A DNA stretch of 64,000 nt from Candidatus Bathyarchaeota archaeon (GTDB lineage: Archaea > Thermoproteota > Bathyarchaeia > Bathyarchaeales > Bathycorpusculaceae): assembly GCA_963717465.1 (NCBI GenBank), contig OY970340.1:2989890-3053889 (forward strand). The letters run 5' to 3'. Below are positions 57,628-63,904 of the stretch, one piece after another. How positions within the stretch are numbered: position 1 is the stretch's first letter; each line of letters opens with the position of its first letter. Made by a program: the position numbers and the translations under genes. The notes below the pieces were generated by a model. It worked only from the letters and a program-made list of their open reading frames with translations. It did no database searches and was not told the DNA's origin.

Positions 57628-58215
57628 TTGGCTAAATGTATGGGTAATCACGGTGGTTTCTTTCTTGATGAAGCTATGAGAAGATCATGGTATAATCCAG
57701 AGCAAATTCTTCAATCCGCAGGTTTACAATCAGGCATGGTTTTCATGGATATTGGCTCGGCAGACGGTTTCTTCACCATTTTGGCTGCGAAGATGATGGG
57801 AAAAAAAGGAAAAGTCTTCGCTCTCGATATTGATGCGGATGCCATTAAAACGATAAAGAGTAAGGCTCGAAAAGAAGGCTTAAGAAACGTGCAAGCAGTA
57901 GTTGGGGCAGCCGAAGAAACTGTCATCTGCAGCGCTTGTGCAGACATAATTTTCTTTAGCATGGTTCTTCACGATTTTAAGGACGCTTCTAAAGTTTTGT
58001 TGAACGCTAGAAAAATGATTAAGCCCGATGGATTACTGGTCAATTTAGATTGGAAAAAAAAGGAAGACAAAACCGAAATTGGTCCACCGCTAACAATTAG
58101 GTTTAGCGAAGAAAAAGCTTGCAGCATGATTGAGGCTGCGGGTTTTAAATGCTTAAATCCGAAAAATATTGGACCGTACCATTATGTTCTATTTGGCAAG
58201 CCGCTTGCACCTTGA
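57628..58215 (+). CDS. Class I SAM-dependent methyltransferase
   Basis: DIGSADG motif I, ALDID, KPDG. Confidence 0.85.
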   Translation: MAKCMGNHGGFFLDEAMRRSWYNPEQILQSAGLQSGMVFMDIGSADGFFTILAAKMMGKKGKVFALDIDADAIKTIKSKARKEGLRNVQAVVGAAEETVICSACADIIFFSMVLHDFKDASKVLLNARKMIKPDGLLVNLDWKKKEDKTEIGPPLTIRFSEEKACSMIEAAGFKCLNPKNIGPYHYVLFGKPLAP

Positions 58216-58820
58216 GATTGCTCGGCAGTAGCATAAAGTTCCAAAAGGTCATGTTTGAACCTGTCAATTTGGTCTTTATACGCTGAGTGACCAGCGCCAG
58301 CATAGACTGTGAGTTTGGCGATGGGAAGCTTCTCAGCTAACGTACGCATTTCTTCTCCTGAAACAATATTGTCCTCAGAACCCCAAATCAGCCTAACTGG
58401 AAACTTAAACTGTTCAAAATTATCTAAAAGTTTCTTATCCAATGCTCTCGCAGGCGCAATAAGCAACAAGCCTTTAACAGGAAAACTAGCGGCATAATGC
58501 AGCGCGATGTTTCCGCCGATGCTTGCTCCAACGAGGACTGGAGTAACTGAACCGAAAACGCTTTGGATAACCTCATAAACTACTTGAATGTTTTTCTGCG
58601 GATTACGAGTTCTTGGACTACATTTAGTTCTTATCCCATACGGCATGTCTAAAGCTAAAAACGGAACACGCTTTTCAAGCAAAAGATTTGTAATGCCCAA
58701 TTGTTCCCAAATGCTGATTGTGTAGGATAAACCGTGAAGAAAAACTATTGGGACACCCGAAGTTTTATAATATTTTACTGGACACTTGAAACCTGCAGCA
58801 GTCAATATTTTCTGAGGCAA
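58182..58820 (-). CDS. Alpha/beta hydrolase
   Basis: FLHG, GASIGG, GSED, AGH. Confidence 0.88.
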   Translation of the reverse strand: MPQKILTAAGFKCPVKYYKTSGVPIVFLHGLSYTISIWEQLGITNLLLEKRVPFLALDMPYGIRTKCSPRTRNPQKNIQVVYEVIQSVFGSVTPVLVGASIGGNIALHYAASFPVKGLLLIAPARALDKKLLDNFEQFKFPVRLIWGSEDNIVSGEEMRTLAEKLPIAKLTVYAGAGHSAYKDQIDRFKHDLLELYATAEQSQGASGLPNRT

Positions 58821-58920: not shown

Positions 58921-59406
58921 TTGTGGTGGAATTTTTTGGAAGTTAAAGTTGGAGATAAAGCTCCAGATTTTACTTTGCCCTCTCAAATGGGCGATAACGT
59001 TACACTATCTGAATATTTCGGAAAGAAAAATGTAGTCTTGTACTTCTATCCTAAAGATGACTCACCTGGATGTACACGCGAAGCCTGCAGTTTCAGAGAT
59101 AGTTACGAGGCTTTATCAAACTTGGGTGCAGAAGTGCTCGGTGTAAGTTCACAAAGCGTGGAAGCGCACAAGTCTTTTGCCGGACACTATGGGTTGCCGT
59201 TCATACTTCTCAGCGATAAAGATAAAAAAGTCAGAGAGCTTTATGGCGTTCATTCTTCAATGGGTCTTATCCCTGGCCGAGTCACGTTTATTATCGATAA
59301 GAAGGGGATTGTGCGCCATGTTTTCTCGTCTCAAACTCAGACTGAACGTCACGTGCAAGAAGCTATGCAAGCGCTAAAACAGATCGATGAAGACAAAACG
59401 GCTTAG
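58921..59406 (+). CDS. bcp: Peroxiredoxin (BCP/PrxQ)
   Basis: [16 protein letters not shown]; start probably TTG near 58937. Confidence 0.93.
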
Positions 59407-59416
59407 GAGAAAAAGC

Positions 59417-60658
59417 TTGCTCAGGTTATTCAACACTTTATCTGGGCAAACTGAAACATTCAAGCCCCAAGAAGACAAGCTTGTTAAGATGTACACTTGT
59501 GGGCCTTCTACTTATCAGCCAGCACACATCGGCAATTACCGTACTTTCGTTTTTGAAGATGTTCTTCAGCGTTATCTTGAATATTTGGGTTATAAAGTTG
59601 TTCGCGTAATGACGCTAACAGATGTGGAAGACAAATCGATTGCTCAAGCAAAAAAAGAAAACTTGTCAGTCGAGGAGTTAACGCGAAAAAACGAGGCGTG
59701 GTTTTTTGAGGAATTTGAATTTTTAAGAATTAAGAAACCAGATTTCTCGGTTAGAGCTTCAACAACTGTAGACCAAGCTGTTAACTTAATTGATAAGTTG
59801 GTTGAAAAAGGAGTAGCGTACTGGTATACGTATAAAGGAGCGAGAAATGCCTATTTTGACCCGCATAAATTTGCTGGTTTCGGCAAACTGGCGCATTTAG
59901 ACATAAGTAAATGGCCAAAGAGGAAGCGCAGATTCCATAAGGACACTTACCCTGGCACCCCATGGAATAAGGGGGATTTTATTCTTTGGCATGGATGTGA
60001 AGAAAATGTTTGCTGGAACACTCGCTTTGGCAGAGGAAGACCAGCGTGGAATCTTCAAGATGCAGCTATTGTAACTAAACATTTAGGGTTTAGCATTGAC
60101 GTTGCCTGCGGCGGAATAGATAATCTCGTTAGACACCATGATTACACGCTTGCTATTGCTGAAGCAGTTTCAGGAGAGCAGTTTTCAAAATTTTGGCTTC
60201 ACGGTGCTCACTTATTTGTAAACGGAGATAAAATGTCTAAAAGCAAAGGCAACGTGATTTACCTCAAAAACCTTTCAGAAAAAGGTTTTAAAGGCGATCA
60301 GATTCGTTTCTTTCTATCTTATGGATGCTACAGAGAGAAAATAGATTTCACTTATGAAAAATTCGCCGAAGTAACTCGCAAATTGGATTCATTCAAGAGA
60401 TTAGTTGAAGATTTACAAAAACTAAATTCTGCCACTACCACTAACTCCAATGAAGAGTTGAGGACTCTTGTCGAAAGCATACCGTCAAGTTTTGAAGCTA
60501 AAATGAATAACAACCTAGACGTTAAAGGCGCATTCGATAAACTGTATGAGATAATTGGCAAGTTGCATGAGAATAAAGAAAAACTAAGCAGAAAAGATGT
60601 ACAAGATATCTTGCAGAACTTGCGCAAAGTTGACTATGTACTGCAATGTATCTTCTAA
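59417..60658 (+). CDS. Cysteinyl-tRNA synthetase-like paralog with altered active site and no anticodon-binding tail
   Basis: CGP, HIGN and KMSKS present; WHIEC reads WNLQD and FPHHENE reads VRHHDYT; TTG start after AGGAG. Confidence 0.85.
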   Translation: MLRLFNTLSGQTETFKPQEDKLVKMYTCGPSTYQPAHIGNYRTFVFEDVLQRYLEYLGYKVVRVMTLTDVEDKSIAQAKKENLSVEELTRKNEAWFFEEFEFLRIKKPDFSVRASTTVDQAVNLIDKLVEKGVAYWYTYKGARNAYFDPHKFAGFGKLAHLDISKWPKRKRRFHKDTYPGTPWNKGDFILWHGCEENVCWNTRFGRGRPAWNLQDAAIVTKHLGFSIDVACGGIDNLVRHHDYTLAIAEAVSGEQFSKFWLHGAHLFVNGDKMSKSKGNVIYLKNLSEKGFKGDQIRFFLSYGCYREKIDFTYEKFAEVTRKLDSFKRLVEDLQKLNSATTTNSNEELRTLVESIPSSFEAKMNNNLDVKGAFDKLYEIIGKLHENKEKLSRKDVQDILQNLRKVDYVLQCIF

Positions 60659-60665
60659 AGAGAGT

Positions 60666-60905
60666 TTAGACTAAATCTCCCACGTATTTTACTTTTTCAA
60701 GGTTTGCTTCCCCATGGGGGGCATTTGCTAATTCTTCAGTTAAGTCCTTTCCAGCTTGATGTGCCCCAAAATGGTCGCCTCCAATCCAAAAACTATCTTC
60801 CGTCACATCGTAGACCTTGCCATTGTACGCAATGTAAGCAGGTTTGCCGTTGGTCCCATCATTTTTTTCAAGCTCTTGCCTTGAAATTTTTCTCGCGGCA
60901 CTCAA
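60666..60905 (-). CDS. Cytochrome b5-like heme/steroid-binding domain protein
   Basis: YIAYNGKVYDVT...HQAGKDLT...PHG; TTG start after GGAGG. Confidence 0.88.
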   Translation of the reverse strand: MSAARKISRQELEKNDGTNGKPAYIAYNGKVYDVTEDSFWIGGDHFGAHQAGKDLTEELANAPHGEANLEKVKYVGDLV

Positions 60906-61237
60906 AAAAAGTTTCCTCCAACAATTAATAATTCTTATTGCACTTAAACGTTTCAATAAAATGACTTTAAAGCTGACGCCTTTTCTACTAAAAATGATAC
61001 TACAAACGCGAAAAATTTCAAACAAAAAACAATAACTTCCGTCATAACTACTACTAGTACGACTGAGGATATGGCAGAAACCATTAAAGCATAGCTTGTT
61101 AGGAACCTCCATAAAGATTGGATTCCAAGACTGCAGAACATTAAATTAAGCTAAAGAATGAGAAAAACATGTAAATATTTCCTAATCGAGGCAAATACAA
61201 ATAAGACTGCTTATTGACTGCTATGATTGGAGGCTAA

Positions 61238-62146: not shown

Positions 62147-63904
62147 ATGGCGCGTTACCGGTGTATTGTTTGTAATTATGTTTATGATGAAGCTAAGGAA
62201 AAAATAAAATTTAGCGATCTGCCCAAAGAATGGGTTTGCCCTGTTTGTGGTGCACCGAAAAGCAATTTTGTCCTGTTATCAGAGGAATCCGTTGAAGAAA
62301 AGAAGGAGCGCACGGTTTCAGAAGTTCTAATTGATCAAATTGGACAGTGGGGTGTTCAATACGTTTTTGGCATCCCAGGCACTTCAACTTTGGGCGTCGT
62401 TGACGCGATACGCAAAAGCAACAAAGTGAAATACCTGCAAGTGCGGCATGAGCAGACTGCAGCATTTATGGCTTCAGCTTACGGAAAATTAACCGGTCAC
62501 GTTGCAGCGTGTCTGGGAATTTCTGGACCGGGCGCTACGAATTTGGCTACGGGCTTGTACGATGCAAAGCTTGATCATTCGCCTGTTTTAGCGTTAACTG
62601 GATTGGTAGCTAGGCAACTCATTGGTCCAGGTTCAATGCAGGAGATTGATCAATATTCTTTTTTTGAGCCGATCTGCGTGTTCAACAAGATTTTAATGTC
62701 GCCTGACCAAACCACTATGCTAGCTACTTTGGCGATTAAGTATGCATTAGTTGACAAGGGAGTTTCCCACATTGGAATTCCTAACGATGTTCAAAAAATT
62801 CGTTATAAAACTGAAATTTTGCCTTTTGAGGGCAGGATGCCAAACTTCGCTTATGCACAAGACGAACAGCTAATTGAGAAAGCCGCCAAGATTGTAGATA
62901 AAGCAAGCAGACCAGTGATTATAGCTGGTTTTGGCGCTATGGGCCAAGGAGGCAAACTTTTAGAGTTGGCAACAAAAATTTGCGCTCCAATCGCGACTAC
63001 TTTCAAAGCCAAAGGAGTCATCGATGAACAAGATACCCTGTCCATTGGATGCCATGGTGGTGTTGGTTCAACTGCCTCGGCTGAGCTTGTCCGCAAAGCA
63101 GACTTGCTTATTATCATAGGCTGTTCTTTTTCTGAGTTGACACAGATTCCATCAAAGAAAACCGTTCAAATCGACATTAATCCTTTGATGATTGCAAGAA
63201 GATATCCTGTTGAAGCGGGATTATTAGGCAACAGCGCTTCATTAATTCCCAAGCTAACTGCTAAAGTCAGCGAAAAACACAATGCACCATATCTTTACGA
63301 AGTTGCCCGGCTAAAACGAAATTGGCTGAGCAGGCTTCAGAAAGAAGCAGACCGCACAAAAAAACCCATCAGACCTCAATACATAATTAAAGTTTTAAAC
63401 GAGAAACTTGCTGATGACGCAGTGATTTCGCTTGATGTTGGGGAAAACTGCTGGTGGTTCGGACGCAACTTTTTGATGAAAAAGACCCAGAAGATGGTGA
63501 TGAGTGGTTACCTTGCCACGATGGGTTTCGGTTTACCTGGCGCCTTGGCAGCGGCACTTGCTTACCCAGATAGGCAGATTGTTTGCGTAACTGGCGATGG
63601 AGGATTAACTATGGTGTTAGGCGACTTTTTAACGGCAGTCAAGTACGGTTTGCTCGTAAAAGTTTTCGTTTTCAACAATAAAAGTTTAGGAATGATTATG
63701 CAGGAACAAAAAGTGGAAGGCTACACGGGCTGGCAGACAGACCTGCAAAACTATGATTTTGCAAAGTTCAGTGAAAATGCTGGTGGATTTGGAATTAAAG
63801 TGAGTGAACCTAATCAACTTGAAGATGCCGTAGATAAAGCATTGGCCGCTAAAAAGCCTACTATTGTTGACATCGACACTGACCCAAGAAGATTCATCAC
63901 GTGA
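62147..63904 (+). CDS. Rubredoxin fused to a ThDP-dependent pyruvate oxidase/dehydrogenase-like enzyme
   Basis: CIVCNYVY...[27 protein letters not shown]...NN. Confidence 0.9.

Follow-up and report, generated by a model that had tools for sequence, protein, structure and literature searches.

A short cysteinyl-tRNA synthetase paralog of Bathyarchaeia with a rebuilt amino-acid pocket and a probably changed substrate

Introduction

The window analysed here, i.e., the whole stretch of 64,000 nucleotides from a Candidatus Bathyarchaeota genome, contains a gene whose product retains the ATP-binding motifs of cysteinyl-tRNA synthetase (CysRS) and departs from that enzyme in the residues surrounding the amino acid. 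The locus raises the question of which substrates such a protein uses, namely whether it still activates cysteine and whether tRNA is still the acceptor. A sequence-only reading of this DNA had answered that the protein is a candidate tRNA-independent ligase with a changed, possibly redox-related, substrate. CysRS paralogs without an anticodon domain are a known type, and two of them, CysRS* and MshC, are named in a review (PMC9437257), and both still use cysteine; what is new here is the rebuilt amino-acid pocket, the clade appearing to have changed the metal-based pocket itself. The clade is apparently undescribed, as no description of it was found in the full-text literature searched, a body of text outside which most subscription papers fall, including those on the CysRS and MshC structures.

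Results

Gene, translation signal and fold

The gene of the short CysRS paralog (59417..60658, + strand) starts with TTG and encodes 413 amino acids with no internal stop codon. A Shine-Dalgarno-like AGGAG (59405..59409, +) overlaps the TAG stop codon of the upstream bcp gene (59404-59406) and lies 7 nt 5' of the TTG, for which reason TTG at 59417 is preferred as the start over an upstream ATG at 59387; this overlap suggests that bcp and the paralog are translationally coupled. A promoter scan, of a type ill suited to archaea, returned chance-level matches only. The motifs previously read from the DNA, i.e., CGP, HIGN, GRPAWNLQD, DVACGG, VRHHDYT and KMSKS, and the terminal VDYVLQCIF, are all present in the translated open reading frame. 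The Pfam profile matched by the protein is tRNA-synt_1e (PF01406 and TIGR00435 are CysRS families), while its score of 310.5 bits against TIGR00435 (NCBIfam cysS) lies under the cut-off of 340 and that of 184.7 bits against TIGR03447 (MshC) lies far under the cut-off of 485.1. In the databases, homologs bear the plain name cysteinyl-tRNA synthetase or the label ‘class I tRNA ligase family protein’, and these named homologs, like their loci, are indicative of Bathyarchaeia; matches in the ESM Atlas were to CysRS/MshC-type clusters only.

An AlphaFold model built from a deep alignment (pLDDT 95.9, pTM 0.94), used instead of an earlier fold from 21 sequences that was unreliable in the pocket, is closest to CysRS (TM 0.90 to 8qhp and 0.83 to 1li5), with TM values of 0.82-0.84 to MshC. 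The 413 residues comprise a Rossmann catalytic domain, a CP domain, the stem-contact fold and a helix bundle. The bundle, four class Ia helices recognized by model and structure comparison (residues 313-409; 60353..60643, +), is retained, and is listed as the class Ia anticodon-binding superfamily in AARS Online (PMC11580382). The missing part is only the C-terminal GCA-reading extension of ~60 amino acids, so that the earlier description of a protein without an anticodon domain is right for this extension and wrong for the bundle. A split CysRS was considered and rejected, there being no separate anticodon-extension gene in the genome or in the fetched clade loci.

A remodelled amino-acid pocket

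Sequence and alignment place the first metal ligand, which is kept, in C28-G-P-S31, followed by HIGN at residues 37-40 (59498..59536, +), and the KMSKS ATP motif at residues 272-276 (60230..60244, +). In the alignment, WHIEC is replaced by W211-N-L-Q-D215 (60047..60061, +), with D215 at the position of E. coli C209, and PHHENE by R239-H-H-D-Y-T244 (60131..60148, +), where H240 equals E. coli H234 and is preceded by a new, invariant Arg. The zinc ligands of E. coli CysRS are C28, C209, H234 and E238, and its contacts to the alpha-amino group are G29, T31 and T68.

A residue comparison of 50 diverse clade rows, six of which were picked after the motifs had been seen, with 68 full-length CysRS rows separates what has been kept from what has changed. 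Kept in the clade are C28, G29, H37, T68, W211, H240, H241, H262, K272, M273, K275, R297 and Y305, while T31S (Ser in 50/50 clade rows), H206N, E208Q, C209D, P233R, E236D and N237Y are fixed differences; H224, E238 and Q241 are lost, the E238 position varying across the clade between T, N, I and V, and K185 is mostly His. Two of the four zinc ligands have changed, Cys209 to Asp and Glu238 to varied residues, and the equivalents of Cys28 and His234 stay. The Cys in DVACGG is not new relative to DIHGGG, since DIHCGG is already found in the canonical CysRS of this genome, and only His224 has been lost from this motif.

CysRS selects cysteine via a zinc-thiol bond, while Zn sites made of Cys/His/His in ThrRS and containing Cys/Glu in methanogen SerRS bind hydroxyl amino acids, according to PMC7373986. 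The site has been remodelled to Cys28/Asp215/His240 and is not necessarily lost, and by this precedent the triad could still hold a metal, with oxygen ligands favoured. R239 would add positive charge to the pocket, a geometry read from the alignments. With two zinc ligands altered, an invariant Arg entering the pocket and both changes shared throughout the clade while the ATP motifs are kept, a changed substrate is likely, as the sequence-only reading had proposed.

A conserved clade and its short relatives

The pocket residues N212, Q214, D215, R239, H240 and H241 are present in 120/120 rows, and D242 and Y243 in 119/120, of an alignment of the query and its 119 top-scoring homologs. The same six residues are invariant in 27 Bathyarchaeia rows of 50-69% identity, rows chosen by score, with one left-out locus reading WDIQD. 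The clade signature is WNxQD, RHHDY and WPxxKRRF, and the dN/dS among 58 close pairs has a median of 0.12 and a maximum of 0.28. On these alignments and ratios the paralog is under purifying selection, and the pocket changes are due neither to chance nor to decay.

In a quick IQ-TREE run with 85 rows, the clade together with a single degenerate row received a support of 100. In a second run with 65 rows (26 dropped and 6 added relative to the first; SH-aLRT support only, midpoint root), from which the pocket and CP1 columns had been removed, the clade received a support of 99; conservation of WNxQD and RHHDY within a clade is thus borne out by alignments and tree alike. In this second tree, a branch of support 98 parts the clade and nine short proteins from the full-length CysRS enzymes, among which three other short rows are grouped. 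MshC and CysRS* sequences were not among the rows of these trees, and MshC also stood outside the charge comparison given below.

The short relatives of the clade derive from Micrarchaeota, Iainarchaeota and Methanoperedens-class genomes. They share with the clade the absence of the C-terminal extension, the CGPS motif and a basic surface, but most of them keep WHIEC and HHEN, one reading WNVQC. Three short forms (P0163, P0205 and P0240) have a partly changed pocket motif, and remodelling of the pocket seems, on these sequences, to have happened repeatedly. On the simplest reading of the midpoint-rooted tree, loss of the anticodon extension would have preceded the rebuilding of the pocket. A short sister form is the sole CysRS homolog found in 4/5 Methanoperedens-class genomes, and SepRS is present in the one such genome examined for it.

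The acceptor side

The sequence-only reading had noted a basic insert, KWPKRKRRFHK. This segment is instead a replacement of the CP1 loop (E. coli Q164-V169), only ~4 residues longer than the original: the alignment defines a rebuilt acceptor-contact loop, W166-N184 (WPxxKRRFHxDxYxGxxWN; 59912..59968, +), in place of a QAGARV-type loop. Its motif WPxxKRRFHxDxY is nearly invariant in the clade, and its mean net charge is +5.4 in the clade versus -1.1 in full-length CysRS. The protein as a whole has also become more basic, with a median pI of 9.2 in the clade (>8 in 43/50 rows) against 5.9 in full-length cores (>8 in 15/71), and in 5/5 genomes the paralog has a net charge of +8 to +25 and the canonical core one of -1 to -12. 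Canonical CysRS cores bind tRNA although they are acidic. A basic loop, a basic protein and a kept helix bundle favour a polyanionic partner, although the charge, which bears on this indirectly, could serve a polyanion other than tRNA.

PMC5389517 indicates that this CP1 position reads the first acceptor-stem pair, that an engineered CysRS without the anticodon domain and with PTVS at CP1 supported opal suppression by the selC* tRNA, and that native CysRS* was inactive in E. coli. Because a variant lacking the domain supported tRNA-based suppression, tRNA independence does not follow from the missing anticodon extension, and the earlier proposal of such independence is not established, the acceptor-contact loop and the whole protein having become more basic.

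Rfam searches of 25 loci, which may miss 8/4 tRNAs, revealed no tRNA within 4 kb of the paralog and no dedicated tRNA beside the gene, the only one seen being an ordinary tRNA 5 kb away. In the host genome no odd tRNA came to light, and its extra tRNA-like loci look like ordinary intron-containing tRNAs and one 3' fragment; a relaxed ARAGORN run produced mostly noise. A 3' tRNA-Gly-like fragment (G000:C1:1131133-1131205) could be the scar of an integration, and a tRNA-Thr(GGT) gene occurs as two identical copies 600 nt apart (G000:C1:2554848-2555524).

An accessory gene of patchy distribution

A separate canonical cysS, the presence of which had been proposed as a check, lies ~70 kb away in the same genome and encodes 474 amino acids with WHIEC, FPHHENE and an ADxIR tail; the paralog, which is 35% identical to this enzyme, is therefore not the housekeeping CysRS. 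The canonical protein (L001:6120-7544, -) reads KMAKR where KMSKS is expected. One ordinary tRNA-Cys is found in the host genome.

The paralog is present in 49/401 Bathyarchaeia genomes (match at E<1e-100), 44 of which have a second CysRS match, while two further carriers have canonical CysRS fragments at contig ends; in the remaining three, fragmented bins of 70-170 contigs, neither a canonical cysS nor a clear SepRS was found. Broken copies exist in three genomes (G334, with 15 stops, G304 and G175), showing that the gene is dispensable. Among 301 genomes of the host's own phylum the clade is restricted to Bathyarchaeia (five genomes at E<1e-200), and it occurs in 7/301 genomes of Desulfobacterota (the Syntrophobacter phylum); its members outside Bathyarchaeia belong to Syntrophobacteraceae, Desulfobacterales, Methanocellales, Methanoperedens and one Promethearchaeota bin. 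A viral scan returned four distant CysRS-like loci (24-32% identity), none of them a clade member. One clade member (L207:5607-7220) has a DUF488 domain on its N-terminal side, either as a fusion or lying in the same frame.

Gene neighbourhood and the redox question

Directly upstream of the paralog lies a gene for a bcp/PrxQ-type peroxiredoxin (58921..59406, +; profile searches and locus comparison), preceded by a divergent alpha/beta hydrolase gene (58182..58820, -) which serves as a marker of the locus and is still present in 12 members of the family where an intact paralog is missing. A convergent cytochrome b5-like gene (60666..61112, -), with its domain in the last ~75 codons, follows and is syntenic only in the host's Bathyarchaeia family. 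The supposed rubredoxin neighbour is, according to profile searches, the N-terminal domain of a pyruvate-oxidase-like TPP enzyme (62147-63904), which adjoins the gene only here among 41 loci. The gene order in the host's family is UDG, small proteins, a methyltransferase, the hydrolase, bcp, the paralog and the cytochrome b5-like gene, often followed by metG.

The bcp gene directly precedes the paralog in 25/28 loci of this family and in none of 23 contexts outside it. Its ortholog is present in 30/34 carriers versus 1/20 non-carriers among 54 genomes of the family, which as kin are not independent, and is missing from four family carriers and from 10/14 carriers examined outside the family. 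Outside the host's family the gene stands alone, with unrelated neighbours in bacteria and, in one gene-tree sub-branch to which the C1 gene context is confined, in front of dinB within methanopterin/methanofuran genes. In five Bathyarchaeia loci (L062, L067, L312, L328 and L331), dinB (DNA polymerase IV) is directly downstream and co-oriented. A biosynthetic partner gene that recurs from context to context was not seen, and no shared motif was visible by eye in 23 upstream regions.

Redox-defence families occur within 4 kb in 10/24 contexts versus 4/19 control windows, a difference that is not significant (Fisher p=0.20) and that was obtained with a family list fixed after the test set had been seen and with differing cut-offs (1e-8 and 1e-10). 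The main scan covered 119 neighbour ORFs and the control 150/164 ORFs, one short control window being dropped. Of the proposed redox link, the conserved bcp partner therefore stands, within the host's family only, while enrichment of redox neighbours does not; the link is a weak lead and not a result.

Comparison with known systems

The paralog shares with CysRS the fold, HIGH/KMSKS, C28, W205, H234, H235, T68, the stem-contact fold and the helix bundle. It differs by C209D, H206N, E208Q, P233R, E236D, N237Y and the loss of E238 and H224, as well as by its rebuilt CP1 loop, the absence of the GCA-reading extension, its accessory nature and its patchy spread. MshC, which ligates Cys to GlcN-Ins in Actinomycetota and keeps the zinc-site Cys of WHIEC, has the same length (413-414 amino acids), domain content and fold, and likewise no anticodon extension; the query, with WNLQD, departs from this motif and is closer to archaeal-type CysRS. 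YadB (Glu-Q-RS) also lacks an anticodon domain. PMC7373986 and PMC4721953 describe it as a class I synthetase paralog acting on tRNA outside decoding; unlike the clade, it is GluRS-derived, keeps its own amino acid and modifies queuosine.

CysRS* of Desulfobacterales (PMC5389517) resembles the clade in being a second cysS copy without an anticodon domain and with a changed CP1 position, and some hosts of the two belong to the same phylum. The CysRS* gene lies downstream of selC*-selB*, and its product, with PTVS, is considered to supply Cys (PMC5389517), whereas the clade has PxxK/KRRF, no adjoining selB*/selC* and mostly genomes without SepSecS; no SelB-like gene was found among the paralog's neighbours. 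The comparison with CysRS* covers the CP1 motif and the gene context.

Discussion

We tentatively prefer, at somewhat less than an even chance, to read the protein as an accessory class I enzyme which uses ATP to adenylate an amino acid other than the ancestral one and for which RNA is the acceptor; in this last role we rank RNA just before a small molecule or a protein. The enzyme would descend from a CysRS without the anticodon extension in which both substrates subsequently changed. An aminoacyl-adenylate is probably still formed, in view of the retention of HIGN, KMSKS and the residues that contact the alpha-amino group (G29, S31 and T68). The amino acid is probably not ordinary cysteine; Cys28/Asp215/His240 together with Arg239 would suit a side chain that is anionic or donates oxygen, e.g., that of oxidised cysteine (sulfinate or cysteate), Asp or Ser. 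Given these steps, there is about an even chance that a polyanion serves as acceptor, most probably a tRNA, through its acceptor end, or some other RNA, which the basic-aromatic CP1 loop would grip without anticodon reading. The enzyme might then charge, modify or clear tRNA outside normal decoding in a dispensable, stress-related role in anaerobes. A bolder version, which we consider rather doubtful, is that a CysRS-fold enzyme no longer using cysteine still works on tRNA: with its Cys/Asp/His metal site and Arg239 it would recognize an oxidised or other anionic cysteine analogue, and it would load this onto acceptor ends or strip it from them, the anticodon being left unread. Against the preferred reading stand the lack of a dedicated adjoining tRNA gene or of an odd tRNA in the genome, the fact that acidic canonical cores bind tRNA, so that the charge could serve another polyanion, and the three fragmented carriers without canonical cysS or clear SepRS. 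Since mshC is also a lone gene, missing partners are compatible with a small-molecule ligase as well.

Such a ligase, MshC-like or EpmA-like and independent of tRNA, would adenylate an amino acid and join it by an amide bond to a protein, a small molecule or an anionic cofactor, its loop binding a phosphate- or carboxylate-rich acceptor. We regard this as possible, if doubtful: length and domain content are those of MshC, the anticodon extension is lost, the acceptor loop is rebuilt, a partner tRNA was not seen, and one sub-branch lies among methanopterin/methanofuran genes, but this C1 context does not extend beyond that sub-branch, no pathway gene recurs across contexts, the protein has become more basic and its TIGR03447 score is 185 against a cut-off of 485. 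A further reading is that of a back-up CysRS for zinc shortage or oxidation, in which Asp would stand in for an oxidation-prone Cys ligand and tRNA-Cys would be read by its acceptor end only. The retention of C28, W211, H240 and H241, the operon with bcp in one family, the three carriers without a canonical gene and the short sister form as sole homolog in 4/5 Methanoperedens-class genomes (SepRS being present in the one examined) would fit; nevertheless, cysteine is selected by the zinc-thiol bond (PMC7373986), nine pocket positions have changed in concert, including the new Arg, the 23 upstream regions share no motif visible by eye and the three exceptions are fragmented bins, which makes this reading improbable.

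A detoxifying or hydrolytic enzyme with no acceptor, which would either dispose of a toxic cysteine analogue after adenylating it or make or cleave dinucleoside polyphosphates, would agree with a stand-alone gene and with recurring stress and repair neighbours (dinB in one sub-branch, SOD, disulfide reductases and ferritin), but it leaves the invariant CP1 loop unexplained and the neighbour enrichment is not significant; we judge it quite unlikely. Slightly less likely still is a dead RNA-binding or regulatory subunit of the HisZ type, for which the two changed zinc-ligand positions and the broken copies speak, and against which HIGN and KMxK are kept and the new pocket residues are invariant. 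Least probable, and only barely credible, is a sulfiredoxin-like repair of over-oxidised Bcp, in which ATP would activate the sulfinate, R239 hold it and C28 attack. The new Arg beside a kept Cys and the distribution of the bcp ortholog in the family (30/34 carriers versus 1/20 non-carriers, with the flanking hydrolase kept) are in its favour; however, four family carriers and 10/14 carriers outside lack this bcp, a single deletion can remove both genes, and the kin are not independent. Furthermore, C28 is situated at the bottom of the pocket for the side chain and not at the alpha-phosphate.

If the bolder version, that of tRNA loaded with or stripped of an anionic cysteine analogue, is true, anaerobes exposed to oxygen would possess a new route of aminoacylation or trans-editing, and its intermediates would be visible as a series from full-length enzymes via short forms with an intact zinc site and partly changed forms to the fully rebuilt pocket. 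With its apparently changed pocket, the clade also offers a natural test of a specificity shift within the class Ia fold for which living intermediates exist, and efforts to expand the genetic code could find a scaffold in an enzyme that has a new pocket and does not depend on the anticodon.

Other CysRS-like proteins and selenocysteine genes

Short CysRS-like proteins with an intact zinc motif and without the anticodon extension were seen in L171, L211-L215, P0130, P0137 and P0145, while P0163, P0205, P0240, P0228 and P0230 comprise varied pockets (WNVQC, NAIYC, THSYC and WHIQD) and one degenerate clade member. One genome (G403) carries all three CysRS forms. Long CysRS-like proteins of deltaproteobacterial type, of up to 886 amino acids (L173 in G401, L172 in G404, P0157, P0227, P0234 and P0243), have N-terminal extensions, some with altered motifs.

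A role for the paralog as SepRS substitute in the two-step Cys route was rejected, SepCysS being present in 1/10 carriers examined and 0/5 single-contig Bathyarchaeia genomes. A link to selenocysteine was likewise rejected, as SepSecS was found in 13/401 genomes of the class and in only 5/49 Bathyarchaeia carriers. The host genome itself contains two tRNA-Sec genes (G000:C1:845695-845779, L002, and 2829638-2829723, L003; Rfam 71.8 and 61.8 bits), one beside SepSecS and the other upstream of an ORF with a PSTK-like P-loop start, as judged by eye, and its SelD gene carries an in-frame TGA.
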